A stretch of 64,000 bases of DNA from Candidatus Latescibacterota bacterium (GTDB lineage Bacteria > Latescibacterota > UBA2968 > SICM01). The position numbers were made by a program, and so were the translations under genes. The stretch spans positions 2,528,001 to 2,592,000 of the forward strand of contig CBDCJO010000002.1 in assembly GCA_965217865.1 (NCBI GenBank), written 5' to 3'. Under the pieces are notes generated by a model, which was not told the DNA's origin, searched no databases, and worked only from the letters and a program-made list of their open reading frames with translations. Of the stretch, positions 3,899 to 64,000 are shown piece after piece. Every line of letters begins with the position of its first letter. Position 1 is the stretch's first letter.

Positions 3899-3948
3899 GT
3901 CTCCAAAGTGGTCTAAAAAACAAGGGGACGAGACCAGGAGGTGACACC

Positions 3949-7660: not shown

Positions 7661-7885
7661 TCTTGACCCGGGGCCTTTAATATGTGTTAAGCGATCCGAC
7701 GCGCTGCCAGGAAACCGGTGAGTACAATCGACGGCTTTGCGTGGAACGATATAATTGGGATGTGGTTGTGGATCAAATCGAAGGGATTTACAGATCAGTT
7801 GTTTCATAACGGAAACGGGAATGAATTTTTCTTGACTTTTGGGCACGACAAGGGACAAACAATTTTTAAGGATCGTTGAGGTTCA

Positions 7886-8338
7886 ATGAACAAACGAAGA
7901 ATCCTTTATGTTTCGGAAGCGGATATATTCGGGGGGGCGGAAAGATATCTCCTGATGGTCCTGGAGGGGCTGGATCGAAAACGCTATGATCCAACCGTTG
8001 CGCTCCATCCGGAAGCACCGAGGCAATTGGTTGAAGAATTGGAAGCCCTTAAGGTTCCCCTTTGTTCCATCATCCCGATCCGGGGTAAGCGGGACTTTTT
8101 CAGTTTGATTATGCAGAGGGTGCTTTTCAAGGATAAAAAACCCGACATCGCCCTTATGTCTGAAGTATCCATTATTCCACTTTATGAAGAAATGCCTGAC
8201 TGGATAGAGGGGTTATCGTGTTTTCAAAGGGCCGGATTTGAGATCGCGGGACTGTTTCCCGTGGCTCGAGATTCACTTCGGATTGTTGAATACGATGTTA
8301 TCATGGTAAACGCCGGGCTCCAAAATCAATCGGGATAG
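7886..8338 (+). pseudogene. Chimeric remnant: GT4 N-terminus fused to FkbM-type methyltransferase C-terminus
   Basis: ILYVSEADIFGGAERYL...KPDI (GT4 N-domain) followed by SEVSIIPLYEEMPDW...GLFPVARDSLRIVEYDVIMV (FkbM-like tail). Confidence 0.6.
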
Positions 8339-8363
8339 GCTCTACTCCTGAATAGGCGACAAT

Positions 8364-41671: not shown

Positions 41672-41749
41672 TTTCAGGGGCCGACTCCCTCACAGGCGCG
41701 AACCAACCAAGCTTGGACTTAACTGGAGACCCCCTTGGAGGACAAAGAG

Positions 41750-43347
41750 ATGGAACACGGGATAGATTTTCGCCAGTCTGTTGAACAGCTTTGCAAAATC
41801 GGCCTGGCCCTCTCGAGCCAGCAGGACCTGAATGTCCTTCTCGAGATGATCGTCGATCAATCGCGGGCATTTACCAGCGCGGATGCAGGAACACTCTATA
41901 TCGTTCGGCCCGATAAAAAAGACATCACTTTCGAGGTGATACAGAACGACACCTTCAATGTCCGAATGGGTGGGACGGCGGAGGCCCGGGTCACATTCCC
42001 TCCCGTCGCCCTTTCGGTCGATGGCCAGGCCAACATGTCAAACGTCTCGGCCTACGTCGCGAATACCGGAGAGATCGTCAACATTCCGGACGTGTACGAA
42101 GCGGAGGGGTTCGACTTCACAGGACCCCGCCGCTATGACCAGCAGAGCGGATATCGTTCCAAATCCATGCTGGTGATCCCTATGAAGAATCACGAGGACG
42201 AGATTATCGGAGTGCTCCAACTCATCAATGCCCAAATCCCGAACACGAAAGAGATCATTGCATTTGCTCCGGAACTGGTTGAACTGGCAGAACCATTAGC
42301 CTCGATGGCCGCAGTGGCCATATCAAACGTGCGGCTTATCAGAGATCTCGAGAACCTTTTTGAGGCCTTCATCAAAACGATCGCCGCGGGGATCGACGAA
42401 AAATCGAAGTATACGGGGGACATATCCGGCGTGTCACCGAACTGACCGTAGCTATCGCCCGCCAGGTCAATAAAACTCAGGAAGGTCCCCTCGGTTATGT
42501 TGAAATGACACCCGAGGAGATAAACGAACTTCGGACAGCTGCCTGGATGCACGATGTAGGGAAGATCACGACTCCGGAGTATGTCGTGGACAAGGCGTGC
42601 AAACTGGAAACCATCTTCGACCGGATCGAGCTGGTCCGAACGCGTTTCGAACTTGCCCAGCGTGAAGTGGAGCTGGATAGCCTGCGGCGGCAGGTGGATC
42701 TCCTCAAGTCCGGCCGGATCGAGGATGAACGGATCACGAAGATAGAACAGGAGACTGTGAACAAAACCAAAGCCATTCAAGCCGACTTCGACTTCCTCGA
42801 GCTGTGCAACAAAGGCGGTGAATTCATGGCGGATGAGAAGATCGACAGGTTGAAGGAGATCGCCTCCGGAACGGTAAAGCTTAGGGGAGACACGATGCCC
42901 TTACTGACGGAAGACGAAGTTTACAACATGTCGATTCGAAAAGGCACTCTCACTTCCGAGGAAATGAACATAATGCGCAATCACGCGGCGGTCAGCATCA
43001 AGATGCTGTCCCAACTCCCCTTCTCCAGAAAGTTGCGCAAAGTACCCGGTTATGCCGGTGGCCATCACGAGTGCCTGAACGGAAAGGGTTACCCCCAAGG
43101 TTTGACAGCGGACAGCCTCCCCCTCCAGGCACGGATTATGGCAATCGCCGATATTTTCGAGGCCCTCACCGCGCACGACCGGCCTTACAAAAGGGCGATG
43201 CCCTTGTCGGTCGCTCTAAAAATCCTTCGAAACATGGTGGAGGAGGGCAACCTCGATGCGGACATCGTCGGGCTATGTTTGAAGGAAGGTGTCCTTTTGG
43301 ATTATGCCAGGCGGGAGTTGAATCCAGAACAGATAGATCTGAACTGA
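41750..43347 (+). CDS. GAF plus HD-GYP phosphodiesterase (1-nt frameshift in G-run at 42415-42419)
   Basis: Adding one G gives YTGGHIRRV; MHDVGK, HHECLNGKGYP, ADIFEALT..RPYK motifs. Confidence 0.9.
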
Positions 43348-45823: not shown

Positions 45824-47351
45824 GCAGCCTGTTGAAAAAGTGCGTTTATGCCAAGATGACTGTTGTCTTTCCTTGTGGTTTGGTCCTATGATATATCAGG
45901 TTCAAACTGAGAAGGGAGGACGAGCAAATGGCAATGGGAAAACGAGGCCGACAGAGACAGGAAAACCTGTTCATCGCATCGAACACTTTGGTGAAATCTC
46001 CGGGTCATCCGTTCTACGAGAAGCTGAATCAGGTATTGGGGGCGAACGGCTTCGACGAGTTCGTCGAGGGGCTTTGCCAGCGGTATTACGCTCCTCATAT
46101 GGGTCGCAAGGGCATTCCGCCCGGGGTTTATTTTCGGATGCTTTTGATTGGGTATTTCGAGGGACTTGATTCGGAACGTGGGATCGAATGGCGTGTATCT
46201 GACTCGCTGACGTTGCGCCGGTTTTTGGGGTATGCCCTTGACGAACAGACCCCGGATCATTCCAGCCTGTCTCGCATCCGGCATCGGCTTCCCTTGGAAG
46301 TTCACGAAGCGGTTTTCAAGTGGATCCTGAGGGTCTTGTGCAAAGCGGGTCTGGTGAAGGGGAAGACGTTGGGCGTGGATGCTACGACACTGGAGGCCAA
46401 CGCCGCGATGCGCAGCATTGTACGCCGTGACACGGGTGAAGGCTACCAGGCATTCCTTGAGAATCTGGCCAAGGCCTCGGGCATTGAAACGCCTACCCGC
46501 GAGGACTTGTCCAAGATCGATAAGAAGCGACCGAAGAAGGGATCGAACCAGGACTGGGAGCACCCGCACGACCCGGATGCCAAGATCGCTAAGATGAAGG
46601 ACGGTCGCACGCACATGGCGCACAAGGTGGAGCACGCGGTGGATCTGGACACCAATGCCATTGTGGCAGTGGCGTTGTCGGGAGCAGATGAAGGAGATAC
46701 CGAGTCGTTGCCCTGGACGCTGCTCGAGGCGCAGCTCAATCTCAAGCAGGTCGCGAAGGACGAAAAAGCTGCCAAACGTTTGCACAGACAGCGTATACGG
46801 GAGGTGGTTGCGGACAAAGGATATCATAGCAACGATGTATTGACCAGTCTGAAGCAAGGCGGCATCCGGAGTTACATTTCAGAACCGGATCGGGGACGCC
46901 GCAAGTGGAACGGCCGACGAGATGAGCAGGCCGCGGTATATGCGAATCGACGCCGGATCAAGGGAGATCGCGGCAAGGCCTTGCGCCGAAGTCGTGCAGA
47001 ACGGGTGGAAAGAACCATCGCTCACACATATGATACCGGTGGCATGCGCAGGTTGCACTTGAGAGACCGCGGCAATATCCTCAAGCGTTTGCTGATCCAC
47101 ATCGGGGGCTGCAACCTGGCTCTGCTCATGCGCAAAGTGATGGGCGTAGGTACTCCGAAGGCCCTCCAGGACCTGGCCAAGGCCTTGCAGCGTCTACTGC
47201 TCGTCCTACAATCACGTTTGCTGCCCTCGGTCACCTTTTTAACCTCTTATCAGCGTCTCCTGCTCAATCTCCTTACCTTGATTTATCTGACCCGCACTCC
47301 AGGCGTCTTTTCCGTTTATGTGCGTTGAAAGGTAGTTCTTCAACGGGCTGC
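45824..47351 (+). mobile_element. IS5/IS1182-type insertion sequence, copy 1
   Basis: IRs GCAGCCTGTTGAAAAA / TTCTTCAACGGGCTGC; TA duplication within CTAG. Confidence 0.92.
45928..47328 (+). CDS. DDE transposase (DUF772 + DDE)
   Basis: TPDHSSLSR, VDAT, ADKGY, VER motifs. Confidence 0.93.
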   Translation: MAMGKRGRQRQENLFIASNTLVKSPGHPFYEKLNQVLGANGFDEFVEGLCQRYYAPHMGRKGIPPGVYFRMLLIGYFEGLDSERGIEWRVSDSLTLRRFLGYALDEQTPDHSSLSRIRHRLPLEVHEAVFKWILRVLCKAGLVKGKTLGVDATTLEANAAMRSIVRRDTGEGYQAFLENLAKASGIETPTREDLSKIDKKRPKKGSNQDWEHPHDPDAKIAKMKDGRTHMAHKVEHAVDLDTNAIVAVALSGADEGDTESLPWTLLEAQLNLKQVAKDEKAAKRLHRQRIREVVADKGYHSNDVLTSLKQGGIRSYISEPDRGRRKWNGRRDEQAAVYANRRRIKGDRGKALRRSRAERVERTIAHTYDTGGMRRLHLRDRGNILKRLLIHIGGCNLALLMRKVMGVGTPKALQDLAKALQRLLLVLQSRLLPSVTFLTSYQRLLLNLLTLIYLTRTPGVFSVYVR

Positions 47352-47911: not shown

Positions 47912-50900
47912 TTATGATATCGCGTGAATCACGCCCAAATAAATTCGGGCGATGTCCTCGATGTTTGGAACGACAATCAAGCTTTGATAGAACTCGTATT
48001 TCTCCCCAATCCGGTCCAATTGCGCGGGAATTTCATCCCTTTCCCGAAAAGGCAGGCCTCCAAATCCGGTCAGCTCGGGGTGCCCTCCATCGTCCAAATA
48101 CAAAGCCGGCAAACCGCACGCCTGGGCTTCCAGAAGTGCGTTTGAACACGGATCCTTTTGACTTGCGGTGATGTAGATATCGTGCTCACGCAATAGCGCT
48201 GCGAGTTTTTCTGATGTTACGGGTGGCACGTGACGAATTCGCTCAAATGACTGTTGTGATCTTCCTGCGAAGGTATACTCGAATCGATCCCAATCCAGAT
48301 GCCCTTCCAACCATTTATAGATGTCTCCTCCTTTGCCGGGGTTATCGGACCAGGCGGTGGAGATCAATCGAATTTTTCGCCGGTGATCGAAAGTGACACG
48401 GCCCCTCCCATGGAAAATTCCTCCATCGACAGCATTTTTTATGATGACCGGTTTTACAGGGTCGAATCCCATCTGACGGAGTTGCCGGTAACACCACGCG
48501 GACTGGAGGGCGGTTGCAGTCGCAAATTGAGCGTTGAGCTCGAAGACTTGCTCGTCGATCCCGCGGTCCGATCCGCGATACAGAGAAACGGGTCCGTCTA
48601 TGCGATGAATCATTCGAAAATTCCCCCGCCTGGAAGCCCTCTTAAACTTTTCAACATCAAACCAGGTGGCATTACAGATATGGACATCGATTTCATCCCC
48701 GACCCGGTTTCGATAGACTTTGGCCCCAAGCCGGGTCAATGCACTGTTCAGGGCAAGCATAAATTGATTTCCACCCCCGTACGGGGGTTTATGAAACTCG
48801 TGCCACAGGCTAATGAACAGTTGGGGAATTGACTGAGCGGACCCTCGCCTTAAAACGAATCGCTGCCCCGCCCGTCGAATCAAAGCTCCCACCCACCATC
48901 GATTTCGCACAGTCGGCCGATTTTCGACCGACCCCGATCCGGGAGGACGGTAAACAGGGAGTTCGGAGATTCCTTCGTAAAGATTCCGAAATAGCGGGAT
49001 GTTGGCCTCCGGTGTATGGCTTCGCCCGATCCTGTCGTAATGGAAATCGAGAGTGGTGTGTAGGAAAGGATGGGACATTTCTCGCTCAATAAGCGCGATC
49101 CCTTGGTCCAGGTTGGAAAAAAGACAGGCGGGTTCCAGAATATCAGACGCCAATCCCACAGGTGTGCTGATGATCTTGCAGCGTGTCGACGCAGCCTCTA
49201 AAACCGCTCTAGGGCCTCCCTCCCACCGACTGGTGACAAGGTGCAAATCCTGGACCTGATATAACAAATTCACCGTCTTCCGGTCCAGAATATTGATATG
49301 ATTGTCGTCCCCCTCGATCGTCTTCCCGAAGAATGAAAAAGGGATATCGTGTGCGGCCAACCGGTGTCGAAGCCAATGCCGGCGTGGACCGGCGAGCAGG
49401 ATATGGATAGGCAGGTTTTTTTGCCACAAGGCCCGAACGATCGCCAGAAACAGGTCCGGCCCTTTTTGCACCTTCGGTCGGTCCAGATCCATCCCCAGAG
49501 AATCCCTCATAAAATTGCCGATCACATACCGCCCCTCGGGAATCCCCAACCGATTTCTAAGGGTAGCGATCGATTCCTCATCTATATGATCCCCCCCGAA
49601 AATCTCCGTATTAACGGCATAGCAGCCCGTTGAAGAACTACCTTTCAACGCACATAAACGGAAAAGACGCCTGGAGTGCGGGTCAGATAAATCAAGGTAA
49701 GGAGATTGAGCAGGAGACGCTGATAAGAGGTTAAAAAGGTGACCGAGGGCAGCAAACGTGATTGTAGGACGAGCAGTAGACGCTGCAAGGCCTTGGCCAG
49801 GTCCTGGAGGGCCTTCGGAGTACCTACGCCCATCACTTTGCGCATGAGCAGAGCCAGGTTGCAGCCCCCGATGTGGATCAGCAAACGCTTGAGGATATTG
49901 CCGCGGTCTCTCAAGTGCAACCTGCGCATGCCACCGGTATCATATGTGTGAGCGATGGTTCTTTCCACCCGTTCTGCACGACTTCGGCGCAAGGCCTTGC
50001 CGCGATCTCCCTTGATCCGGCGTCGATTCGCATATACCGCGGCCTGCTCATCTCGTCGGCCGTTCCACTTGCGGCGTCCCCGATCCGGTTCTGAAATGTA
50101 ACTCCGGATGCCGCCTTGCTTCAGACTGGTCAATACATCGTTGCTATGATATCCTTTGTCCGCAACCACCTCCCGTATACGCTGTCTGTGCAAACGTTTG
50201 GCAGCTTTTTCGTCCTTCGCGACCTGCTTGAGATTGAGCTGCGCCTCGAGCAGCGTCCAGGGCAACGACTCGGTATCTCCTTCATCTGCTCCCGACAACG
50301 CCACTGCCACAATGGCATTGGTGTCCAGATCCACCGCGTGCTCCACCTTGTGCGCCATGTGCGTGCGACCGTCCTTCATCTTAGCGATCTTGGCATCCGG
50401 GTCGTGCGGGTGCTCCCAGTCCTGGTTCGATCCCTTCTTCGGTCGCTTCTTATCGATCTTGGACAAGTCCTCGCGGGTAGGCGTTTCAATGCCCGAGGCC
50501 TTGGCCAGATTCTCAAGGAATGCCTGGTAGCCTTCACCCGTGTCACGGCGTACAATGCTGCGCATCGCGGCGTTGGCCTCCAGTGTCGTAGCATCCACGC
50601 CCAACGTCTTCCCCTTCACCAGACCCGCTTTGCACAAGACCCTCAGGATCCACTTGAAAACCGCTTCGTGAACTTCCAAGGGAAGCCGATGCCGGATGCG
50701 AGACAGGCTGGAATGATCCGGGGTCTGTTCGTCAAGGGCATACCCCAAAAACCGGCGCAACGTCAGCGAGTCAGATACACGCCATTCGATCCCACGTTCC
50801 GAATCAAGTCCCTCGAAATACCCAATCAAAAGCATCCGAAAATAAACCCCGGCGGAATGCCCTTGCGACCCATATGAGGAGCGTAATACCGCTGGCAAAG

Positions 50901-51507
50901 CCCCTCGACGAACTCGTCGAAGCCGTTCGCCCCCAATACCTGATTCAGCTTCTCGTAGAACGGATGACCCGGAGATTTCACCAAAGTGTTCGATGCGATG
51001 AACAGGTTTTCCTGTCTCTGTCGGCCTCGTTTTCCCATTGCCATTTGCTCGTCCTCCCTTCTCAGTTTGAACCTGATATATCATAGGACCAAACCACAAG
51101 GAAAGACAACAGTCATCTTGGCATAAACGCACTTTTTCAACAGGCTGCTAGGAGACGTTCACCGCCGGAATACCCAGTCCGACCATCTCACGAAAGGCAT
51201 TCCGGCTTTGGGCAACCCACACGCCGACGATTTGCTTGGTCCTGAGCACGGAAGGTTGCTCAAACAGCCAGACGGGGTCGTTGTTGACGTGGCACACGAT
51301 CCGTTTGCCCGCTAGGTGGTTTTCTTTCGCTGAAACCAGAGGCAGCTCCCAGACCGAGTGGATCACATCGCAACTTTCGATATCTTCCGTCAACTCGATC
51401 CGGTCGGAAAGGCCATTCAACGATTTCCGGGTCTGAGCCAGGTCATCGTCCAAAGCCCAGTTGGAATGATCTCCCCCTGTAAGAAAAACGCGGCAGGGAT
51501 ATCTCAT
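47912..51507 (-). pseudogene. Double-domain GT4 split by IS copy 2 (51149-51507 plus 47912-49621)
   Basis: Removing the IS restores ...AVNVSYAVNTEIF...; EGGPRAVLEA and SNALLEAQACGLP motifs. Confidence 0.88.
49622..51148 (-). mobile_element. IS5/IS1182-type insertion sequence, copy 2 (inverted; 1-nt deletion near 50851 in the transposase)
   Basis: Reverse complement of copy 1 with the same IRs; TA duplication. Confidence 0.92.
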
Positions 51508-52573: not shown

Positions 52574-53962
52574 CTAAAGGGAAACGGCAAATTCTCTTAA
52601 AGGTTCCGCGTTTTCGGAATCGGATCGGAGTGCCGGAAAACGAAGCATAAACTTTGTACCCACACCCATTCGGCTTTCAACCTTGATGGTCCCGTTATGC
52701 TCCTCAATAATCCCTCTACAGATCGTCAACCCCAGCCCGGTCCCGTCCCCGTCCCCTTCAGATCTGCTCGTGAAAAAGGCATCGAATATCTTGCCCAGAC
52801 TCTCATCAGGGATTCCACACCCCGTGTCCGAAACCGTCACCAGGATCCCATCCCCATCCATTTCCGCGGATACCTGGAGACGACCCCCATCACCATCCAC
52901 CGCATGAGAAGCATTCTGAATCAGGTTTAAAAATACCTGTTGTAGTCGGTTGGCATTCCCCAGGATCTGGGGAAGGTCTGAATCCAGGTCCGCGACCACG
53001 CGAATGTTTCGCGCGATCAGATATTTTTCGATCAGGCCGATCGCCCCGTCGATCGGCAGTTTGATATCGATAGGCCTTTGAGAGGGATCGCTCTTCTTGG
53101 AATAGTTCCTCATCTCCTGAAGAAGATCCCGTATGCCTTCCGCTGCCCGCAATATATTCTCGTAAGAACTTCGCCGGTCAGGGTCTAAATCGGACTCCTC
53201 AGACAACCGGGCGGTCCCGATAATCGCGGCGAGGAAGTTCGAAATTTCATGAGTCGCAGTTCCCACCACAAAACTCAAAGATGCCATCTTATCCGCGTGA
53301 ACAAGCTTTTCCCGGTATTGCTCCAGCATTCGTTCCGCTTCTGATAATGTCTCGAACTGAACCTGGTTGTGATTGTTCAGGAAGGCACTCGAGAGCGTGC
53401 TGGCCACATAAGAGCCCAAAGCCGATGCGAGCTTGATTTCGGGTGTGAAAAATTCGCCGCCGAATTTTTGGTCGCACACGATCATCACCCCAAGGGTCCG
53501 TTCGGGCGCAACCATCGGGATGCACACAAGGTAATTTACCGGAAACGGAAACCTGATGGAATTCTCAGATGCCAGATAATGTGCGGCCAGAGCTTTTCGA
53601 TTTCGCAGCGACCTTCCGATGATGCCTACCTCGGGAAGAATTCGAAATCCCCAGGCCATGTCGGCATAGACCCCGGCGGCGGACTTGACATAGAGTTCTC
53701 CGGTGGTCTGGTCTGAAAGGAGGAGAAGGGCCGTGGATGCCTCCAGCGCATCTCGGGCCTCTTCTACGGCAATTCGACAGATCCGTTGAACGTCCCTTTC
53801 CCCTCCTAACCTTTCCATGAGCGAATACAGGACGGACTGGTCCCTGTAACAACGTTCCACCTCGTTCACTGCAGCCGCGATATCCTTTTCCCCGTCCCTC
53901 CAGTCCTTCCAGTTGGTCACCTCCAGGACTGAAGTGCTTCCTTCTTCGACTTTCCGGATCAT
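52574..53962 (-). CDS. GAF-domain sensor histidine kinase (cytoplasmic)
   Basis: HEISN H-box, QVFLNLIQNA, DTGCGI, GTGLGL. Confidence 0.92.
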   Translation of the reverse strand: MIRKVEEGSTSVLEVTNWKDWRDGEKDIAAAVNEVERCYRDQSVLYSLMERLGGERDVQRICRIAVEEARDALEASTALLLLSDQTTGELYVKSAAGVYADMAWGFRILPEVGIIGRSLRNRKALAAHYLASENSIRFPFPVNYLVCIPMVAPERTLGVMIVCDQKFGGEFFTPEIKLASALGSYVASTLSSAFLNNHNQVQFETLSEAERMLEQYREKLVHADKMASLSFVVGTATHEISNFLAAIIGTARLSEESDLDPDRRSSYENILRAAEGIRDLLQEMRNYSKKSDPSQRPIDIKLPIDGAIGLIEKYLIARNIRVVADLDSDLPQILGNANRLQQVFLNLIQNASHAVDGDGGRLQVSAEMDGDGILVTVSDTGCGIPDESLGKIFDAFFTSRSEGDGDGTGLGLTICRGIIEEHNGTIKVESRMGVGTKFMLRFPALRSDSENAEPLREFAVSL

Positions 53963-54327
53963 AACAGCATCTCCTCTACCAAGGCCATCAGAGAATCGAT
54001 ATGAAAGGGTTTTGTGATGTAACGTTCGACCCCTGCCTTAATAGCAACCTCCTCGTCGTCCTCCTGCCCTTTACACGTCAGCATCAGAATGGGGATGTGA
54101 GCCAGTTCGGGATCACCTTTGAACTGTCTGGTCGCCTCGATCCCGTCCATGCGCGGCATCAACCAGTCCATCAGGACCAGAGAAGGCCTTTGCTGGCGAG
54201 CGACTTCGAGACTCTCCAACCCGTTCGAGGCCGAACCGACCGTGTAACCCGCACGGATTAGCTTGGCCGTGAGCATCCGAACGATGAATGTGTTATCATC
54301 TACAACCAGGACGTTCTTAGAGACCAT
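53959..54327 (-). CDS. Single-domain response regulator
   Basis: VLVVDD, LMDWLMP.MDG, LT, KPF. Confidence 0.93.
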   Translation of the reverse strand: MVSKNVLVVDDNTFIVRMLTAKLIRAGYTVGSASNGLESLEVARQQRPSLVLMDWLMPRMDGIEATRQFKGDPELAHIPILMLTCKGQEDDEEVAIKAGVERYITKPFHIDSLMALVEEMLL

Positions 54328-54350
54328 AAGCCTTCAGGGGGACAACACGT

Positions 54351-55613
54351 TTATTCGCTTTTCAACACCGATGGCGATCTGGAAATTCGAAATGGGTATC
54401 TCCGATGGCAGCGGGTTGGAAAAAACATCCCCGGCGGTTGTGGAGGAAGACACGTCTGAGCGGGAGTCGGGAACCCCGGAGGAACAACCTCATCTCGCCA
54501 TCCGCCCCCTATCCGCTTAAGGTAGGTCTCTAATTTTACCGCCACCATCTCCTGTTCAAAATGCTGCTGTATCCTCAGACGGCCTGCGTCTCCCATTCTC
54601 TCCCCCGCACGGGTATCAAATAACAACCTCAAAAGAGACTGCCCCAGGGCACCCTCGTCTCCCGATGGGACAAGCAGTCCCGTTTGCCCGTGAAGGACCA
54701 ATTCGGGAACCCCCCCCACCTGGGTTGCCACCACAGGTTTGGCCATTGCCATCGCCTCAAGCACCGCATTGGGCGACCCCTCCATGGCGGAGGGATGTAC
54801 AAACAGGTCGATGGCTGAGAGGATCTCCGGAATGTCTTTCCGATATCCTAAAAATCTCACCCGATCCGAGATTTTAAGGTCTCTGGAGAGGGCTTTGAGT
54901 TGCTCCAAATCTTCTCCATCCCCCACGATCGCCAGGAAGGCTTCCTGGAAGATTTCAAACACCTTCGCGGCCGTCCGGAGAAGGAGCGGATAGTTCTTAA
55001 CCGGGGTCAACCTGCCAACTGCCCCAATCAATTGGAACCGCTCCGGGACTCCCAATGCCCGCCGCATCCTCCCCCGTTGGATGTGGCGGGCCGGATCCAG
55101 AATCTGGGTGTCCACTCCATTCGGCAACACCTCTACCCGTCCCCTGGAAATCTCCGGGAACCGATTCAGAATTTGACACTTCAGGAAATCCGAGTTAACA
55201 AGCGTACCCCTTACGACATCCTCCATGCCGTACCCAAGATGGGCCGATGATATTCCGGACCAGGGAGATGCACCCACCCTCAGCAGGACCGCCCCCTTTC
55301 CCACCCTGCGAATAATACCTGCAAGAAGGGCGGACTCTGTCCGGTTTCCCATTACTGTGCAAACGACGGCATCGATTGAATATTCCTTGAAGAATCGTTC
55401 TGCCTCCCACATCAGGTGTGCGTTGAAAGCCGGCTCGAAGAAATAATCGAAATGTGCAAACCCACTTGTCTGAGCTTGCTCCTGGGTTCACGACCCGCTC
55501 GGACAGGCAAACGTCACAGTGTGTCCCCGGTCCCGCAAACACTCCGCGGTTCCTATCGCCCAAGTCTCTCCTCCGCCTCCCTCAAGCGTATCGTTCCAAA
55601 ACAGGATGTTCAT
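54351..55613 (-). pseudogene. GT4 glycosyltransferase with in-frame TGA at 55488-55490
   Basis: MNILFWN...GGGETW...GHTVTFACPSGS*TQEQAQ... continues in frame to EGSPNAVLEAMAMAKPVVAT; true C-terminus uncertain. Confidence 0.8.
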
Positions 55614-56982
55614 CGGAAATGCGAACATCTTCTGAGAGCGGATGTGCCGAAGGATATCGGCTTTCAAGGAGACCGGGATCCTGCTCGTCTCCCTCCAGGC
55701 AAGCACACATGGCAAGTTCGTAGGTGTAACGGACGCGTTCACAAGAGGCGGGATTGGGTTTGGACGCATCTCCCGTGGCCATCACCGCATCCGCGCAGCA
55801 ACCTCCTCCGCACTGATACCTCGCCCAGCAATTCCTGCAAGGTTCACGCCGCTCGACGTGGAGATCCTGCAACCACGAGCTGTACCGCTCCCGGTCTATC
55901 CCCGAAAACACATCACCCATTTGGAGTGAATCCCAACCCAACAGGTCGGAACAGGGGTATAGACCCCCTTGCGGAGACACGGCTATGGATCGAGTACCCG
56001 CTCCACAGCTGTATAAAAGAACGTGTCGACCCATCAACTGCGCTATCGGCCCCTCGATCTCTTCTAGAACCATCTCATCTCGGCTCACCAGATGATCGAT
56101 CGTATAATCCCTCAACACTCCCAAGTTATTTCGCACATCCTGGATATGCTCCTCCCGGATATGGTCTGGGTGTTGAGCCGGCAAACTTGCCCAGCGGACG
56201 CCTATGGCCCTGGCAAACGGAAATCGGCGTTTCAACTCGCCAATGCGGCCCGCCAAATCCATATCCCTTCTGTTTGCCACAATCTGAAGACGGAGCTCCC
56301 CCGATTGAGGTCCCGTTCCCAAGACTGAGGCAATTCGATCCAGGGAATCCTGATGGTAGTCTCCACGGACTTCCACAATCAGGCAAACTCCCTTATCATT
56401 GATATAGGTCAAATTTCTCTCTGTCAGGGTGGAACCGTCCGTGACCAATTCGAAATGAAGCTTCTTTCCAAGCGCAGCAGCCTGCACCTCACCATATTCA
56501 ATGATGCGTCTGATGAGAGGAAAGTTCAGAAGGGGGTCACCCCCCTCGAATGAAATCGTACAGTCCTCTAACAACCCGGACTCTTGCATGAGGAGGTCCA
56601 TCGCCCCCAGGGCTACGCCTTCCGACATGTACTTAGGCCCGGTACTCCGATCAGAATTGATGGTATCGGTGGTAACACAAAGGGAAAGATGTGAAATTTC
56701 GACCCGGCTGGGCGGGTGGAACGGAGCTATCTGGACCGGTTTGGGACTCAAAATCTCAGCCCGTTCAAGTTCCTCTATCGCGGACTTGATCTCATCCGCT
56801 GGATGGCTTCCGAGAAGAAGCTTGAAAATCTCTTCAGATGTATGGCCGCTGCCGACAGCCAGAACATCCCGGGTCACGTCATCGATCTCGAAAAACCCGC
56901 CCCTGAGAACATCAAACAGAATATGTCTCTGATTCATTTCGAAAACGTGACTCTCGCATTTGAAAACGGTATTCGAAATCAT
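55582..56982 (-). CDS. RRE + radical-SAM-like + SPASM protein lacking CxxxCxxC
   Basis: PqqD-like N-terminus; FEGGDPLLNF; SPASM CGAG..YPC..CRNCWARYQCGGGC..C; SAM-cluster motif absent. Confidence 0.8.
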   Translation of the reverse strand: MISNTVFKCESHVFEMNQRHILFDVLRGGFFEIDDVTRDVLAVGSGHTSEEIFKLLLGSHPADEIKSAIEELERAEILSPKPVQIAPFHPPSRVEISHLSLCVTTDTINSDRSTGPKYMSEGVALGAMDLLMQESGLLEDCTISFEGGDPLLNFPLIRRIIEYGEVQAAALGKKLHFELVTDGSTLTERNLTYINDKGVCLIVEVRGDYHQDSLDRIASVLGTGPQSGELRLQIVANRRDMDLAGRIGELKRRFPFARAIGVRWASLPAQHPDHIREEHIQDVRNNLGVLRDYTIDHLVSRDEMVLEEIEGPIAQLMGRHVLLYSCGAGTRSIAVSPQGGLYPCSDLLGWDSLQMGDVFSGIDRERYSSWLQDLHVERREPCRNCWARYQCGGGCCADAVMATGDASKPNPASCERVRYTYELAMCACLEGDEQDPGLLESRYPSAHPLSEDVRISDEHPVLERYA

Positions 56983-57043
56983 TGAATAGTTCCCCTGATT
57001 AATAACTCTTCCGGTCTAACGCCCTCCTCCTCCAAAACCCCCT

Positions 57044-58408
57044 TTACAAACGCCCTGTCCGTTTCCGTTGTCTCCAGTTCCAGCTCACGCCTCTCCCCCA
57101 GGCCTCCAACGCCCTGTCCGTTTCCGTTGTCTCCAGTTCCAGCTCACGCCTCTCCCCCAGGCCTCCAACCACCTCCAAAGCAGCGTCGGCCTGGTGGCGC
57201 GAAGTGATGGCCACCGGATGGGTGAATATCCGATTCGAGTCCCGATCACCCGGGACGATCGGACCGATCCGGCACTGGATCCCGGCCAGGTGGGGGAGGA
57301 AGCCATCGCATGCCTGGCCGGTCCAGTGCCGAAGCGTCACGGACATATCAAACCCTTGACCCCGTATCGCCTTTGCCATTCCAAACTGCCTGACCATTCG
57401 CCATAAGCCCGCCCCACGGATGGGAGAAGGAATCACTTCATCGATATACCGGCACGCGGAAAAAAGCCCTTCGAAACCCGAAGGGACCAGACAGGCGATG
57501 TGGGCATCCGGATGCTGTCCCCTCAGGTATCTCAAGGCGGGGATGGCCAGGACCACGTCTCCGATCCCGCCCGGCGCAAGGACGAGGATCCGGCCTGGAA
57601 TCGGAGATTCAGGCGACGGCCTTCGAACCCGGTTTATAAAAGACCCGAATCCAAAAATTGCGGCCCTTTCCATCGCCTCACAAATACGCCCCTTCACCAT
57701 AGCCGCTACAGAGAGGAGAAAGGGCAATACCACACGTGGCAAGAAATCGTAGCGGTCCACATACGTAAGAACCCGGGTGTCGAGAAGCCATCCCGACATC
57801 CACGTAAGGCAGAAACCTCGATAGGGGTGACGATCCGAAAAATCGTAAACTCCTACCGCCAGATCGAACCCGCCGGCCTTCCGCAACGCCCTGACCAGGG
57901 CGGGAAGATTTCGGATATCCGCGCTGAATCTTCGAATATGCAAGTCGGCCCCAGGAATCCTTTCCCGGATGATCCCCGCAGGAATCCTGATGGCTGATGG
58001 ATCCGTGGAAAAGGTATAGAGAAGAACCCTCAAGTCCCTCCCGTTTACACCTTCCAGCAAACCATCACCGTGCCCACGGATCGACCATCGGAATAGATTT
58101 TCGAGGGGGTTCAACGGGCTATACACAATTGGGACCCAACGGCCTAAAAAGCGCTGGAGGACCCCGACCTGGATCGCCCCGACCGACCTCAGTTCCTCCA
58201 GCGCATCGCAGATATCCTCCTCCGGAAGATGGTCCTTCAGGGCATTCACCACCTCCCCGGAGGTACGTCCATCGCAGACGGAAAGAACAGCACGCACGAC
58301 ATCGTCGATCTCGAACCCGAGACTGTTCCCGGAGATCAACACGGTCCGACCGTCACCGGTCTCAATGATATCCAGCCCGTCTCGGATATAGAGGTTTCCG
58401 TTCATCAC
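57044..58408 (-). CDS. RRE (PqqD-like) fused to GT9 heptosyltransferase-like domain; C-terminally truncated
   Basis: FEIDDVVRAVLSVCDGRT...ALEELRSVGAI is paralogous to the rSAM N-termini; RILVLAPGGIGDVVLAIPALRYLR. Confidence 0.78.
   Translation of the reverse strand: MMNGNLYIRDGLDIIETGDGRTVLISGNSLGFEIDDVVRAVLSVCDGRTSGEVVNALKDHLPEEDICDALEELRSVGAIQVGVLQRFLGRWVPIVYSPLNPLENLFRWSIRGHGDGLLEGVNGRDLRVLLYTFSTDPSAIRIPAGIIRERIPGADLHIRRFSADIRNLPALVRALRKAGGFDLAVGVYDFSDRHPYRGFCLTWMSGWLLDTRVLTYVDRYDFLPRVVLPFLLSVAAMVKGRICEAMERAAIFGFGSFINRVRRPSPESPIPGRILVLAPGGIGDVVLAIPALRYLRGQHPDAHIACLVPSGFEGLFSACRYIDEVIPSPIRGAGLWRMVRQFGMAKAIRGQGFDMSVTLRHWTGQACDGFLPHLAGIQCRIGPIVPGDRDSNRIFTHPVAITSRHQADAALEVVGGLGERRELELETTETDRALEAWGRGVSWNWRQRKRTGRL
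57049..57169. repeat. 59-bp perfect tandem duplication in the 3' end of the GT9 gene
   Basis: AACGCCCTGTCC...GGCCTCC repeated at 57049 and 57108. Confidence 0.92.
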
Positions 58409-59862
58409 GCAGGCACCGCTTCAAGGTCTAGAAATCGTCGATCGACCAGTTCCTGATCGCGCTCCTGAAGCTCGACACACATGCCCATCGCCAGCTCGTA
58501 AGAGTGGCGGATGATTTCACACGACACGGGATTCGGGGTGAATCCGTCGCCGGTGGCCAAAAACGCATCGTGAGCGCACCCCCCTCCGCACAGGTTTCTC
58601 GCCCAGCATGTCTGGCAGGGCTTCTTGTTCCCGATGTAGAGCCGGTCTTTGAATCCGTCCTGTTTTTCCGAATCCAGTCCGGAAAAGACATCCCCGAGTC
58701 GGAACTCATCCTTCCCGGCCAGGCTGGAACAGAAATAGATCGAACCGTCGATGGATATCGACAGAAGTTTCCGGCCCCCGCTGCAACCGTATTTCGCCCG
58801 CTCCTGCTTCAGGAGTTGGCGTGCAAGGCTCTCAAACCTCCCTAGCTTCGTGGGGGGGTCCTCGTTGACAAGCCTCTCCACACAGTAGTCGCGCATCTCC
58901 CTTAGATGAGTCCGCATCTGGGGAAGATGCTCCTCCCGAATTGCCCACGGTTTGTCCGGGGTCTCGTTGACCGTTCCGACCAGGACAGCGCTGGCCTCCC
59001 CGAGTTCCGACAGGCTCCTGGCGGTTCCCGCAAGGTCCATGTTGGCCGATGTCAGCGTTGCCCGCAGGGTCACCTTCTCGGGCCTTTCGGCCATCATTCG
59101 TTGGGCGTTTCGAGACACCACTTCGTATGAGCCTTTTCCGTCGTGGAACATCCGCAGCCCGCTCTCGTCCTGCTTCGGGCCGTCGAGGCTGACCATCACT
59201 TCGATGTCCTCTTCATCGAAGAAACGGACCACTTCATCGTTCATCAACGTCCCATTCGTCGTGATCCCGAACGTTACGACGACCCCGACCTCCTCAGCCT
59301 TAAGACGGGCATACCGAACCACCTCTTTGATCAGGGGAAAATTGAGGAGCGGTTCTCCCCCGAAGAAATTGATGTGAGAACGGCCGACGGATCTACATCG
59401 ATCCAGCACCCAGTCCACGGCTTGCCGGGCGACCTCCGGCCGCATCTGCTCGACCCTTCCCCCGTAGGCCCCGCCGTCGGCGAAGCAGTAGATGCACTTG
59501 AGGTTGCATGCGTGGGAGACGTGCAGGGTCACACAGATCGGCGCGTCTGGTGTGCATTGGGGGTTCTCAGAATCCGGGATTTCGGACGGAATGGGCCCTT
59601 CGGAAATCAGGCCGGCTCCCTCCAACTCATGCGAAACCTCCAGGATTTCCTCCGGTGTCCATTGATCCGACAAAGCGGCGGCTACCTGTTCCGAAGACAA
59701 CCCCTCGCACGCGTCCAGAACCGCCTCGGACAGTTCGTCGATCTCGAAGAACCGGAGACCTTCCACGTCGAATAGAAGACGCCGGGAACCGTCCTGAAAC
59801 GTGTGTACCTCAGGCCGCCTGTACACCGGACCCGCCTTTCTTCTCCTGATCTGCCTTTTCAT
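58405..59862 (-). CDS. RRE + radical SAM + SPASM peptide maturase
   Basis: CNLKCIYC, FFGGEPLLN, TTNGT, VSLDG; SPASM CSGG..YFC..CQTCWARNLCGGGC..C. Confidence 0.93.
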   Translation of the reverse strand: MKRQIRRRKAGPVYRRPEVHTFQDGSRRLLFDVEGLRFFEIDELSEAVLDACEGLSSEQVAAALSDQWTPEEILEVSHELEGAGLISEGPIPSEIPDSENPQCTPDAPICVTLHVSHACNLKCIYCFADGGAYGGRVEQMRPEVARQAVDWVLDRCRSVGRSHINFFGGEPLLNFPLIKEVVRYARLKAEEVGVVVTFGITTNGTLMNDEVVRFFDEEDIEVMVSLDGPKQDESGLRMFHDGKGSYEVVSRNAQRMMAERPEKVTLRATLTSANMDLAGTARSLSELGEASAVLVGTVNETPDKPWAIREEHLPQMRTHLREMRDYCVERLVNEDPPTKLGRFESLARQLLKQERAKYGCSGGRKLLSISIDGSIYFCSSLAGKDEFRLGDVFSGLDSEKQDGFKDRLYIGNKKPCQTCWARNLCGGGCAHDAFLATGDGFTPNPVSCEIIRHSYELAMGMCVELQERDQELVDRRFLDLEAVPA

Positions 59863-60062
59863 CGACCTCGATCGTCCGGTTCTCAGCACCCTTGTTCTTT
59901 AAGAACGAGAAGTTGGGCCAAGGGAACATAGGGTAATCCGGATAACAGGATAAAGTGATCCGTCGCGTCTGCCCGGCCTTTGGCCTGGGCTTTCCCCTTG
60001 TCTGAATTTCCAAACACCCGTGAAAGCCCATTGACCAGCCTTAAATGTCGCTTTCTTTCCAT
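59810..60062 (-). CDS. Putative RiPP precursor B (one +1 frameshift near 59990)
   Basis: GGAGG RBS; MERKRHLRLVNGLSR... then in the next frame ...RRITLSCYPDYPMFPWPNFSFLKNK...; both halves match peptide A. Confidence 0.6.
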
Positions 60063-60125
60063 GAAGTCCTCCGGTGGTTTCAAGTCAAGCTGTTTGGGGA
60101 GATTGATAATTGAATATCCTTATCA

Positions 60126-60323
60126 CTACTCATTACTCGGGGTGGTCCTGGATTCGGTCTCATCCGGGGAGTTAACGGGACTTTGACGACGAAACAGGGA
60201 AAAGTTGGGGAAGATAGATCCTTCCGGCCAAATCGAGAGGGTGATGGACTGAAACGAATCTGAACGGCCACGGAAACCCGCAATCCCCTCATGATCGCGC
60301 GCGAGCCCGTTGACCAGCTTGCC
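60126..60323 (-). pseudogene. Putative RiPP precursor A (no start codon; not in the ORF track)
   Basis: GKLVNGLARDHEGIAGFRGRSDSFQSITLSIWPEGSIFPNFSLFRRQSPVNSPDETESRTTPSNE*; in-frame TAG immediately upstream. Confidence 0.55.
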
Positions 60324-60346
60324 CTATTCCAAAATGCCGAATATAG

Positions 60347-60378
60347 AAAAAAAAGCACCGGACAGTGTCCAAGTGCTT
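60347..60378 (-). terminator. Intrinsic terminator
   Basis: AAGCACTTGGAC-ACT-GTCCGGTGCTT followed by a T-run on the minus strand. Confidence 0.75.
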
Positions 60379-60520
60379 GAAAAACAGTTTGAAATCACGG
60401 GGAAGTCTTTAACCCTGGAGCTTAATTCATTCGGTTGGAATGATAAATATCCTTAGCATCCAATTTTTCCATCAATTATAAAAATCTCCTATCTATTAAC
60501 AAATAAATGTGGATGAATAA

Positions 60521-60567
60521 GTGCACAAGTTATATGCACATAGGTGCAAAGAAATCTTTGCACCTAT
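60521..60567. promoter_or_regulatory. Two adjacent GTGCA...TGCAC palindromes, candidate enhancer (UAS) sites
   Basis: GTGCA-N9-TGCAC (60521-60539) and perfect ATAGGTGCAAAG-aaat-CTTTGCACCTAT (60540-60567). Confidence 0.5.
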
Positions 60568-60596
60568 CGTGTTCCATTAATACCGGGACATGTTTG

Positions 60597-63500
60597 TCAA
60601 TCCTGGTTCCTCAACCCATAGCGTTTCATCTTCTGCTGAAGCGTCACCCGGCTGATCTTCAATGTTTCCGCGGTTCGGGTCACATTGTGGCCGTTATTGA
60701 CCAGGGCCTCTCTGATCATTGCCCGCTCCACCTGTTCTACCGCCTCCTTGAGGGAATCCCTGTCTCCTGCCAATGAAACAGCGTCGACAGAACGGCCCCG
60801 AACCCTCTCCGATAAAGCATCTTTTGAGATCTCCTGACCCGAGGGGGTGAGTGTCACAGCCCGTTTGATCTCATTCTCCAGTTCCCGTACGTTTCCAGGC
60901 CAGGTATGATCGATCAGAAGGGCCATAGCATCTGGTTCGATCCCGGGCACTTCCCGATTCAATGTCTTCCCGAACTCGTCCAAAAAATGCCTTGCAAGCA
61001 TCGGGATATCCTCTCGCCGGTCCCGCATGGGAGGAAGCGGGATCGGAAAGGCATTCAGCCGATAGAAAAGATCCTCCCGAAACCGGCCTTCACCGATCTC
61101 TTTTCCCAGATCCCTGTTGGTTGCGACAATCACCCGCACATCCACCTTTCTGGCCTTTGTCTCCCCAACACGGCGGACCTCCCCCTCCTGGAGCACGCGC
61201 AGGAGCCGGGATTGTACCTCCGGAGAGGCGTTCGTGATTTCGTCCAGGAAGAGCGTACCTCCGGTAGCGGCTTCGAACAGCCCGGACCGGTCCGCGATGG
61301 CCCCGGTAAAGGCACCCCGCCGATGTCCGAACAGCTCGCTCTCCAAAAGGCCTGGCGGCATCGCCCCGCAGTCCTGCACGATGAACGGACCGTCCTTTCG
61401 AGGGCCGTTGTAATGGATACTCCGTGCGACCAGCTCCTTGCCTACCCCGGTTTCCCCGGTGAGGAGGACCGTCATCCCGTGACCCGCCGCATTCGAAATC
61501 AGGGCGTAAACCTTCTGCATCGCCGGGCTCCCGCCGATCAGGCTGTCGAAGGCATAGCGCCGCTCAGCCTCCTGCTGGAGATGCAGGGCCTTCTGTTTCA
61601 GACCTTCGTGCAACTCCGCATTTTCGATCGCGATGGCCGCCAAATTCCCGAAGGCCTTCAGGAACTCCTCGTCCTCTTCCAAAAAGGCATCGGCGTGCCC
61701 CCGATGGTCCACGTAGAGCGCACCGATGATCCGACCGGATTTGATGCGAAGGGGCATGCACATCACGGACCGGATTCGATAGTCCACCACGCTCTGCCGG
61801 CCGACAAATTTCGGGTCGCTCTTCGCGTCCGCCGCCCTGAGGGGCCGCCCTGAAGTCATCGCATCCCGGATCAGGCTGTAACTGATCTGCGCGACCTCCT
61901 TCTCTTCCATCCGACGTGCCCTATAGGACCGGACCGTCAGCTCCTCACCCGGCTCCGCCAGAACGATAAGTCCCCGCTCGGCCTGCGTCGTCTCGAGGAG
62001 CAGGTCGATGGAACGGTTCAACAGGACGTCCAGATCGAGTATGGATGTCAGGGCCTTGCTCACCTCATACAGGGTCGACAGACGGTCCTCCGTAATCAGA
62101 TGATCTCCTGGAATATCCGGGTTGCTCATTTCGGTCTGTGAATCCGGTGCTGGGGTCTCTAACCTGGGATTTTCTGCTTCCGTGGGTTTGACTCTCCCAG
62201 AACCAGGGTCCCCCTTTTTGGATTGGGTGTTTTTTTTCATAACGATCTCCAACTCCCGAGCGGCCTTGCCCGCGAAATGCGTGGCACCCATCTGGGTAAA
62301 TATCTCTTCGGCCTTCTTGAGACAATTGATAGCATGCCCATGTTCCCCGAATCGATGATAAAACTTCCCCCCTTCCAGATAGGAACATCCCAGGTCGTAA
62401 ATCGGGTTCCCATCGATCACCGAGATGCTCTTTTTAAAACACCGTTCCGCCTCTTCATAATGCCCCATGGCTGACCTGGCTTTTCCAATCGCGCGCCAGC
62501 TCTGGTTCTGACGTAGAATATCCGCTGCCCCTGAAACATCCCGGGCAAGAAGGGCTTGTTTCAAGGCCCTATCCGGCCGACCCTGTCTAAGGGCGATCTC
62601 CGACAACTGGCAGTAGGCCAGCGGCAATTTTAACGTATCCTGAATCGTGAGGAACATTTCTTGGGCTGTTCGATAAGCATCTTCAGCGTTTTTCAGATCC
62701 CCCCGTTCAAGATAGATCGCACCCATGTCGATCAAAGTCTTCGCAACTCGACGTTTGGATCTCTGTGATCTGTCAAATTCCAACTCCTGTCGGGCGAATT
62801 CCTCAGCTAAGTCAAATTCTCCCCGTAGAAGATAGATCTGTCGAAGAGGGCCCAAACTCATGTATTTGGATATGGGGTCTTCGATCTCCTCGCAGATCTT
62901 CAGAGCTTCCCTTTCGCACTTCTCAACCTGGAGCAGATCTCCCCGCATCGAATGAGCCCGGGAAAGGGTTTGTAGACACCTGATCTCATTCCTTTTTCCT
63001 TCCATCATTCGATACTTTTCAGCAGCCTTGAACATGAATCCAGATGCCCGGTCAAACTCCCTTTTGTGCCAACAAAATGCGCTCAACCTCTGGAGTGAAA
63101 AAGCTTCATTTTCGCCATCACCCAGTAATTTATAAAGTCTCTGAGCTTTGAGGGCTGTCTCAATGGCCTTATCGTGGTCATCCTGATAAAGATATACACC
63201 GGAAAGGACCGAAAAAGCTTTTGCCTTCTGGTAGTCCATTTTCTCATTTTTTATTAGATCAAGAACCTGTTCGGCATTTCTTTTCGCTTCCTGCCATCGA
63301 CCTGTCATTATTAAGACGTATGCATAATTGCAGATAAGGTCCGTGTGAACGGTCGCCTTCTTTGTCAAACCTTCCGCTTGAATTAGCCCCAGAGCCTTTT
63401 CATAGGAGGATATGGCATTTCCGATGGCGTAGAGTTCGACCGCCCGATCTCCCCCATGCTTCAGGTAGGATATCGCCTTTTTGTGGTCCCCCCCTTCGTA

Positions 63501-64000
63501 AAAGTGGTGTGCGAGGGTTTCCACGACCCCTTCGGTCTGTCCGTTGCAGTGGCTCTCCAGGTTCTCTCCAACCTCCCGATGAAGCTGCCTTCGCCTCTCC
63601 TCAGGGATACCCTGGTAGATCACCTCCTGCTGCATCGCGTGAATAAAACGATATCTGGCCTTGGAGATCTCCTCGCGAATCACCTGCGCTCGGCGCAACC
63701 CTTCCAAAGCATCCAACAGGGGTAGCTCTCCGGTTTTGCTGACCTCCATAAGGGTGTCAAAGTCGAAGTGCCGCCCGATGACCGCCGCCCAATCGAGGAT
63801 CTTTTCCGTTTCCGGATCACCTCCTGAACCCTCTCGGGTACTCCTTTGATTTCCTCATCCCTGATCTGCCACCGCCCCTGTTCCCAAAAGATATGCCCCC
63901 CCTCCACGAGGGATCGAATGAGTTCGGTCACAAACAGAGGGTTTGCCTCAGCCTTTTGGAATACGCGTCGCCCAACCGCCTCGGGGATCTCCGCATCACC
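60597..64000 (-). CDS. Large ATPase/TPR/GAF/sigma-54-interaction/Fis-HTH activator (5' end outside window; frameshift near 63812)
   Basis: GETGVGKE, ESELFGH..GAFTGA, LFLDEI, WPGNVREL, C-terminal HTH; TPRs; ANPLFVTE and YRFIH motifs typical of STAND-type ATPases. Confidence 0.9.

Follow-up and report, generated by a model that had tools for sequence, protein, structure and literature searches.

The 64-kb window analyzed here, positions 2,528,001 to 2,592,000 of contig CBDCJO010000002.1 from a Candidatus Latescibacterota bacterium, contains what we read as a broken operon for a peptide made by the ribosome and modified after translation (RiPP). In the intact form carried by a relative, the operon would make a thioether ring in a proline-rich peptide with one cysteine, followed by glycosylation directed by the peptide's leader; judged from sequence, this reading as a whole has a probability of about 0.5. 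The genes under study lie on the minus strand, and all positions are in window numbering. A preliminary description of the same DNA had listed peptide A, peptide B, a radical S-adenosylmethionine enzyme (rSAM), a GT9 glycosyltransferase fused to a RiPP recognition element (RRE), an rSAM paralog, and a GT4 glycosyltransferase, with overlapping junctions. The re-read coordinates bear out these genes, their order and their junctions, but the peptides, promoter, GT9, GT4, and upstream activator are all broken in the window copy.

An intact cluster is found in G001, which belongs to another genus of the same bacterial family. Its order is activator, promoter, a 36-codon Cys-free mini-frame, a 76-residue precursor, rSAM, a 664-residue RRE-X-GT9 protein, a paralog without the radical SAM motif (pseudo-rSAM), GT4, response regulator, and kinase. 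In this G001 locus, L022, the precursor occupies 2519-2749, the rSAM 2733-4169, RRE-X-GT9 about 4166-6160, the pseudo-rSAM 6141-7637, and GT4 7606-8877. The window rSAM shares 72% identity with the G001 enzyme. Two further JGI contigs carry a G001-type unit, and a third contig is identical to G001.

The phylum is read here as Latescibacterota, relatives being labeled Latescibacteria or Gemmatimonadota by their sources. Among its 168 genomes, rSAM matches reach E ≤ 1e-40 in 30 and E ≤ 1.5e-90 in 24, and two or three copies per genome are frequent. Forty regions, a subset of these matches, were examined; 35 of them and L043 make up the 36 loci tabulated, four distant enzymes, one broken locus, one duplicate contig, and one 2.2-kb fragment having been dropped from the set. 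Upstream sequence is present for 34 loci. In 33 of these, the end of the activator gene lies upstream of the rSAM at a distance of at most 1.3 kb, and a precursor-like frame stands before the rSAM in all 34 (30 called correctly by script, L025, L030, and L031 by inspection, and L048 as a frame lacking a start in the stretch viewed). The conserved upstream peptide expected of homologous loci is consequently present, and the RiPP locus proposed earlier is supported by it. At least 24 of the 168 genomes of the phylum share the predicted core, which consists of a STAND/sigma-54 activator, a single-Cys proline-rich precursor, and a CteB-like radical SAM enzyme. A sigma-54 site scores 8.9–26.5 in all 33 related loci, 18 of which formed the training set of the matrix. 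An inverted repeat, AAGCAC...GTGCTT (60353..60378), is conserved in the window; it precedes this promoter in relatives, is matched exactly in 16 of the 33 related loci, and presumably resembles a site for IHF.

A profile search with the precursor returned 274 clusters. The 120 precursors listed, nearly all of the type found in genus g4, have no Pfam family; 105 contain one Cys and 15 contain two. The Cys lies 11 residues ahead of PF in 117, and six variable residues separate it from Val at Cys+7 (115 of 120) and Pro at Cys+8 (all 120). Other lineages keep the leader motif, L-x-I/V-N-G, and one core Cys in Pro/aromatic cores, and the invariant Cys is also present in loci without a glycosyltransferase. 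The sequence (T/S)LSC marks the core Cys in three of the four lineages with pseudo-rSAM, GT4, and a visible peptide. NCBIfam gave no match for the window's peptide frames, and the ESM Atlas offered nothing better than a 0.76 match for the precursor. The 36-codon Cys-free frame lies between promoter and precursor at L022 (2389-2499) and at the start of L044; a leader-like start is joined directly to a PFPHF motif, and the frame may be an internally deleted peptide A.

Maturase, recognition elements, and glycosyltransferases

The RRE-radical SAM-SPASM maturase (473 aa; 58405..59826), identified by NCBIfam scores and alignment to CteB, retains an intact frame. Its CxxxCxxC cysteines are at 107/111/114, and seven SPASM cysteines are at 348, 366, 404, 407, 413, 417, and 436; in CteB, the seventh-Cys arrangement keeps one iron free to bind the Cys of the substrate. 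The protein aligns with CteB over its full length, including the N-terminal domain (E 9.6e-62), its best family matches are thioether-forming RiPP maturases, and its architecture (RRE, CxxxCxxC radical SAM domain, and seven-Cys SPASM) is that of ranthipeptide synthases. The seven-Cys pattern occurs in 56 of 60 clade members. Measured against the CteB catalytic-site profile F-F-T-S-H-Q, with positions taken from the accessible text of PMC10288494, four of six positions match: positions 1-4 (F, F, T, S) are kept in the clade, and positions 5-6 are S-S (40), S-A (14), or S-T (1), with five of the 60 unscored.

An RRE profile built solely from 32 active-rSAM N-termini of distant or other families was searched against the 52,890 reading frames of the genome. 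It matched exactly three frames, the rSAM (E 3.5e-16), the paralog (9e-13), and the GT9 protein (5.6e-9), with the next at 0.47. Because exactly those frames are found, the resemblance of the N-termini is not due to chance, and the three paralogous PqqD-like N-termini noted previously are real. The pseudo-rSAM orthologs of G001 and L043 match PqqD (PF05402) weakly, below the cut-off (E 1.7e-4 and 6.9e-4). In the model of an intact GT9 protein, P0007, residues 11-74 form three strands followed by three helices, like the N-terminus of CteB. A separate model of the N-terminal 297 residues, of low confidence (mean predicted local distance difference test score, pLDDT, 49), had CteB 2-87 as the best of 48,161 chains (VIA-align; Z 8.1, root-mean-square deviation 3.5, 81 residues aligned), tied within 1 Z with unrelated Rossmann matches to its other domain. 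The RREs share 15-27 of 72 residues, a level that does not distinguish the source paralog of the GT9's RRE. Leader binding is predicted for all three proteins and is likely for the rSAM.

The GT9 gene (56979..58408) is truncated in the window, its frame ending early at 57044, and the protein was delimited using the intact forms P0001 and P0007. Both carry PF01075 with a fold like that of WaaF/WaaC, and a third, Rossmann-like domain lies between the RRE and GT9. Thus the RRE-GT9 fusion of the preliminary description exists intact in relatives, the intact ortholog scoring 105.6 bits (cut-off 22) for PF01075 and showing a GT-B fold by Foldseek (3TOV, 1PSW, and 2H1H). The truncated window protein gives no Pfam match and 37.5 of the 134.6 bits required for TIGR02195. 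The P0007 model (mean pLDDT 77.5) comprises the three strands and three helices, the Rossmann-like middle domain at lower confidence, and a full GT-B pair; the fold ranking is headed by the GT9 protein 3TOV, WaaF, and WaaC, TibC ranking 13th. The GD and DSG-x-x-H motifs of the intact GT9 are in register with those of WaaF/WaaC, and we take the Asp to be the catalytic base. The fusion is present in 2 of the 168 genomes, both of one family, and in six database proteins with near-full coverage. For the middle domain, fold searches yielded generic Rossmann matches only, and no relative outside this family was found among 1.84 billion representatives, cadherin-like and HEAT matches being treated as noise. 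Its secondary structure suggests a degenerate copy of the GT9 N-lobe, but profile comparison was weak (32% probability over 26 columns). Two further frames may be RRE fusions or chimeras: P0216 (289 aa), where an unrelated sequence at the C terminus is attached to the same GT9-type RRE, and a 266-residue frame with an RRE-like match (G084:C314 797-1024).

The pseudo-rSAM (55582..56982) consists of RRE, barrel, and SPASM domains, assigned by alignment and tree, in an intact frame. It is 31% identical to the rSAM, and, as had been claimed for a dead rSAM paralog, it lacks CxxxCxxC; the SPASM cysteines are kept. In a quick tree with long branches, the pseudo-rSAMs form one clade (98% support in the Shimodaira-Hasegawa-like approximate likelihood-ratio test). 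Different cluster ligands have been lost in different lineages while the RRE is retained, a pattern that fits a non-catalytic role. One second paralog (L029 7897-9378) keeps CxxxCxxC and has lost the SPASM cysteines; a different GT4, an AraC regulator, an acyltransferase, and a methyltransferase follow it, and L046 has the same cassette minus the paralog.

The GT4 gene (54351..55613), identified by Pfam and by comparison with G001, encodes a Pro/aromatic C-terminal tail, as do other pseudo-rSAM-linked GT4s. The five best GT4 matches in the 168 genomes (E ≤ 1.8e-71), from three families, are all directly 3′ of a pseudo-rSAM, and the next three (E ≥ 5e-56) are not. The pair also occurs in a sixth genome, where GT4 is frameshifted. 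From these distributions, the pseudo-rSAM and GT4 are taken to be inherited together across three families. A 723-residue GT4-GT9 fusion also occurs in G001 (C320; L072 451-2619), with a GT4 part 34% identical to the cluster GT4. Locus L049 (7300-13290; G104) combines rSAM, pseudo-rSAM, GT4, a CAAX-type protease, and a ThiF-like protein, and a 0.9-kb gap 3′ of its rSAM may conceal more small peptides.

Proposed pathway and alternatives

In the proposed pathway, the large kinase-AAA-TPR-GAF activator has the anatomy to drive the sigma-54 promoter ahead of the peptide gene and very probably does so. The RRE of the rSAM would likely bind the leader at L-x-I/V-N-G. Hydrogen abstraction from a core residue by the radical SAM site, with the Cys held at the open auxiliary-cluster site, would give one S-C ring and a loss of 2 Da, a step that the likeness to CteB makes probable; the best candidate acceptors are the conserved hydrophobic residue at Cys+7 and the Pro at Cys+8. 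A single ring is the best reading because there is one invariant Cys and the enzyme is CteB-like. The GT9's own RRE would then recruit the peptide for transfer of a sugar to Ser/Thr, for example those just ahead of the Cys, and we somewhat favor the peptide as its substrate. The leading candidate for the donor is ADP-heptose, a tentative assignment. E. coli makes ADP-heptose, and an ADP-heptose adenylyltransferase domain scores over its cut-off in all five genomes tested, including G000 and G001. TibC, according to the accessible text of PMC4358343, heptosylates Ser residues of proteins. GT4 itself lacks an RRE; the chances that the pseudo-rSAM serves it as a leader-binding adaptor without catalytic activity are a little short of even. 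As for the product, a strain-specific signal or recognition peptide, rather than an exported antibiotic, is the favored reading, though one of low probability. The L022 and L044 precursors differ at 26 of 156 compared sites (18 of 108 in the leader and 8 of 48 in the core) and their rSAM genes at 0 of 1420, which fits selection for strain-specific cores. A bolder reading, which we hold to be rather unlikely, would make these peptides a new class of heptosylated thioether-ring peptides, with a lipopolysaccharide (LPS)-derived GT9 aimed by its fused RRE, a dead rSAM serving as leader-presenting subunit of a second glycosyltransferase, and a hypervariable ring that is perhaps a strain-specific signal read by the TPR-bearing activator.

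Several results weigh against the ring-and-sugar pathway. All NCBIfam scores of the rSAM fall below their cut-offs (nif11-type 271/519 bits, QhpD 270/453, SCIFF 258/425, and PapB 258/340), and His363-Gln364 of CteB is replaced in all 55 scorable clade members. Asp, Glu, or Asn occurs in only 38 of the 120 listed cores, which amounts to no conserved acidic acceptor, and Ser/Thr in only 82 of the 120 g4-type cores. Matches to heptose kinase and isomerase are below cut-off, and no heptose isomerase was found in G001, a 95% complete genome. A second rSAM paralog is present in 7 of the 36 loci and a GT9 beside the rSAM in 2, other loci having unrelated, varied glycan genes behind the same promoter. 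Two of the three unlinked GT4 matches are beside or fused to a GT9, as in envelope-glycan loci. Finally, the case for hypervariability draws on L044, which is one 2.2-kb metagenome contig. Because so few loci have a GT9 beside the rSAM, glycosylation, which had been presented as the defining feature of the cluster, is better regarded as an add-on; the GT9 and its fusion are themselves present. With the changed pocket and the missing acidic acceptor, the linkage may be of another type, and the altered substrate-side pair means that the reaction may differ from that of CteB.

The alternative that survives best, although unlikely, is that the glycosyltransferases act on envelope glycans or lipids as cargo of a sigma-54 stress operon, the RRE on GT9 allowing the (cross-linked) peptide to regulate or scaffold the enzyme and not to accept sugar. 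It stays alive because of the unlinked GT4 relatives beside or fused to GT9, and is also favored by the closeness of the GT9 catalytic part to the LPS heptosyltransferases WaaF/WaaC, the varied glycan genes behind the rSAM elsewhere, and the lack of a conserved exporter or protease. Against it, a separate, ordinary GT9 is encoded elsewhere in each of the five genomes tested, the GT4 lineage of the cluster tracks the pseudo-rSAM and not glycan loci, and fused RREs are said to bring substrate to their partner enzymes (PMC12710340, accessible text).

The pseudo-rSAM might instead be a TrnD-like partner of the active rSAM, the two forming a heterodimer with leader binding by one subunit, and GT4 working alone. 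The accessible text of PMC12093266 reports that TrnC and TrnD of thuricin CD form a complex in which the radical SAM motif of TrnD is dispensable, and the paralog here is usually directly 3′ of the rSAM. We regard this as improbable: 29 of the 36 loci have an active enzyme without a second paralog, and the same GT4 lineage follows every motif-less paralog for which downstream sequence is present.

A third possibility concerns the chemistry. The conserved Pro and aromatic residues could be cross-linked by the rSAM through a C-C or C-O bond, or altered in some other way, leaving the Cys as a cluster ligand or a site of S-glycosylation. The clade-wide replacement of the CteB His-Gln by Ser-Ser/Ala, the lack of a conserved acidic acceptor, the Ile at the Cys position of peptide A, and the S-glycosylation of Cys known from glycocins (PMC11912497, accessible text) are compatible with such a reaction. 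Still, the enzymes of the closest families, like the only solved structure that matches over the full length, form thioethers, the Cys is invariant even where no glycosyltransferase is encoded, and peptide A is a remnant. The thioether ring is retained here, and the third possibility is judged quite improbable.

Decay and surroundings of the window copy

The claim that the cluster makes a peptide product does not hold for the window copy, which, given its breaks, almost certainly makes nothing. Peptide A (60126..60320), a remnant of a precursor paralog that follows the G001 precursor collinearly at both the protein and the DNA level (38% identity), has no in-frame start and has Ile (60233-60231) in place of the invariant Cys. 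Peptide B (59810..60062, leader ATG at 60062) is the precursor by comparison with L044 and G001; after a break near 59952, its Cys codon (59947-59945), Pro-rich core, and tail sit one frame off from the leader, with a leader-to-core spacing 5 nt less than in L044. The end of its downstream frame overlaps the rSAM start, as in the intact G001 precursor. The GT9 protein lacks residues 451-622 (the donor-binding lobe) of the near-identical P0007, and its gene contains a 59-bp tandem duplication (57049-57169), which causes the early end of the frame. GT4 is interrupted by TGA at 55490-55488, where G001 has Trp; selenocysteine read-through was rejected since relatives have Trp at that place. The C-terminal part of the Ser/Thr kinase-AAA-TPR-GAF-sigma-54 activator (60597..64000; Pfam and tblastn) is broken by a frameshift near 63680-63850 and by an insert resembling an insertion sequence (IS) past the window end, and tblastn with an intact 1638-aa relative recovers three pieces in this genome. 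No sigma-54 promoter was found in the window copy by the matrix scan (best score 1.9).

The breaks were compared with contigs of four sequencing runs among 16 listed. One contig of run X1, perhaps the source sample itself, equals window 54300-64000 without difference, except that the duplication is skipped. X4 contigs, from the same study, contain the frameshift and, like X1, span the GT9 deletion junction, while X2 contigs, from another study, have the GT4 nonsense codon and the 5′ end of peptide A unchanged. The letters of peptide A and of the GT4 stop are identical in X1, X4, and X2, and those of peptide B in X1 and X4. The 59-bp duplication is skipped by contigs of all four runs and could be artefactual or reflect a collapsed repeat. 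In other assemblies, near-identical proteins are broken in other ways (a 30-residue deletion in rSAM P0037, truncation of rSAM P0041, and a frameshift in GT9 P0215), from which we infer that decay runs across this species. Outside the cluster, two of eight genes are split or have stops, too few genes for a background rate. A second precursor was not found in the genome with the precursor profile, a weak search in which the window's own broken frame ranked only at E 0.15. A scan of genome contigs with the rSAM gave one distant locus (29%) among the matches listed. That the breaks are assembly errors, or that the copy works through a frameshifted or distant precursor, is very improbable: the skipped duplication and the intact rSAM and pseudo-rSAM frames would allow it, but the frameshift and deletion recur in X1 and X4, the nonsense codon and peptide A 5′ end in the separate study X2, close proteins of other assemblies are broken differently, and the genome search returned no second precursor. 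The window copy is thus, in all likelihood, inactive.

The unit also takes in the upstream sigma-54 activator and, in this bacterial family, a downstream single-domain response regulator and soluble GAF histidine kinase, found 3′ of GT4 at 52574..54327 by Pfam; the order is kept in L022 and L043, and the regulator is also present in L031. Methyltransferase and IS-split GT4 genes below 52256 were considered as further members and rejected, as GlnE occupies that place in G001. Two copies of a DDE transposase (DUF772) at 45928-47328 (plus strand) and 49645-51132 (minus strand) split GT4-type genes of this downstream glycan cluster, and a related third insert in G000:C2, at about 2592440-2593900, is the one splitting the activator; it shares an antisense frame with the window's transposase. 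At 41735-43347, two adjoining open reading frames, one GAF and one HD-GYP-like, are possibly one split gene. No protease or exporter had been seen in the window, and none is conserved in related loci either: a CAAX protease, ABC proteins, a subtilase, and a ThiF-like protein each occur in single loci. A protein of 300 residues without a Pfam match, methyltransferase-like by eye, lies within 4.5 kb 3′ of the rSAM in 13 of the 36 loci (L023 7544-8452 and 12 other genus g4 loci) and is a possible tailoring enzyme.

Comparison with known systems

In searches of open-licence PMC and bioRxiv, which did not extend to subscription journals, supplements of bioRxiv papers, or the tables of large rSAM/RRE surveys, neither a GT9 in RiPP papers nor an account of this system was found. 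The earlier statement that the combination is not a described class holds for the RRE-GT9 fusion and the pseudo-rSAM/GT4 pairing, which are the new parts, but clusters with rSAM, pseudo-rSAM, and glycosyltransferase, as well as RRE-glycosyltransferase fusions, have bioinformatic precedents in print. The accessible text of PMC10352776 describes a Bacteroidales cluster (BGC3) of the former kind. This GG-Bacteroidales system (rSAM TIGR04148, glycosyltransferase TIGR04157, and pseudo-rSAM IPR026418) likewise combines precursor, rSAM, pseudo-rSAM, and glycosyltransferase, all uncharacterized. The enzyme families differ, however, with scores here of 85/300 bits for the rSAM and 53/400 for GT4 (scored on the truncated frame), which excludes membership; no GG-motif leader, LanC-like genes, or peptidase transporter is seen here, and the RRE-fused GT9 is present. 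RRE-glycosyltransferase fusions noted by RRE-Finder are mentioned, as predictions only, in the accessible text of PMC7470986, and the family named in that of PMC12710340 is PF00535 (GT2), whereas the fusion here is PF01075 (GT9) with an extra Rossmann-like domain; Fig. S7 of PMC7470986 lies beyond its accessible text.

The glycosylated RiPPs listed in the accessible text of PMC11912497 are glycocins, thiopeptides, lanthipeptides, and lasso peptides, as well as NAI-112 and cacaoidin. A ribosomal peptide with a sugar, here a predicted one, is common to all, and the list as accessible holds no radical-SAM thioether peptide. Glycocin enzymes belong to GT2 (SunS-type) according to the same text; those here are GT9 and GT4 only, which sets the system apart from glycocins. 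With WaaF/WaaC and TibC/AAH (PMC4358343, accessible text) the GT9 shares the GT-B fold and motifs, being closer in fold ranking to WaaF than to TibC, and it differs from them in carrying an RRE and in sitting in a peptide operon. Thuricin CD likewise has two rSAM paralogs, TrnC and TrnD, one needed for catalysis (PMC12093266, accessible text); TrnD keeps its active motif, whereas the paralog here lacks it, is optional, and travels with GT4.

If the proposed pathway is correct, GT9, and possibly heptose, would be added to RiPP chemistry, together with a glycosylated radical-SAM thioether peptide of a kind absent from the accessible list of PMC11912497, and pseudo-rSAM proteins would gain a testable role. 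A GT9 directed by the leader would also offer a portable means of glycosylating peptides at chosen sites. With a Ser-Ser pocket and no acidic acceptor, an undescribed cross-link becomes more likely in this family, which comprises at least 274 precursors without annotation. The intact relative G001, and not the window copy, is the suitable material for experiments.

The closest parallels are the ranthipeptide systems CteA/CteB (SCIFF, TIGR03974, PDB 5WGG), QhpD (TIGR03906), PapB (NF047865), and the nif11-type (TIGR04064), which likewise have an RRE-rSAM-SPASM enzyme with seven SPASM cysteines and a peptide gene directly upstream. CteB itself aligns full-length with identical site positions 1-4, with Ser-Ser/Ala here for its His-Gln. 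The precursors here have one Cys, a Pro-rich core, and a long tail, in contrast to the several Cys with Asp, Glu, or Thr acceptors of ranthipeptides, and with one Cys in 105 of the 120 listed they fall outside the SCIFF peptides, defined by a conserved six-Cys core. A dedicated sigma-54 STAND activator and the RRE-GT9 and pseudo-rSAM/GT4 add-ons are further differences, and every family cut-off is missed. As predicted from its genes, the system resembles a ranthipeptide pathway in operation, its glycosylation modules being optional, and is neither a glycocin nor a Bacteroidales system.

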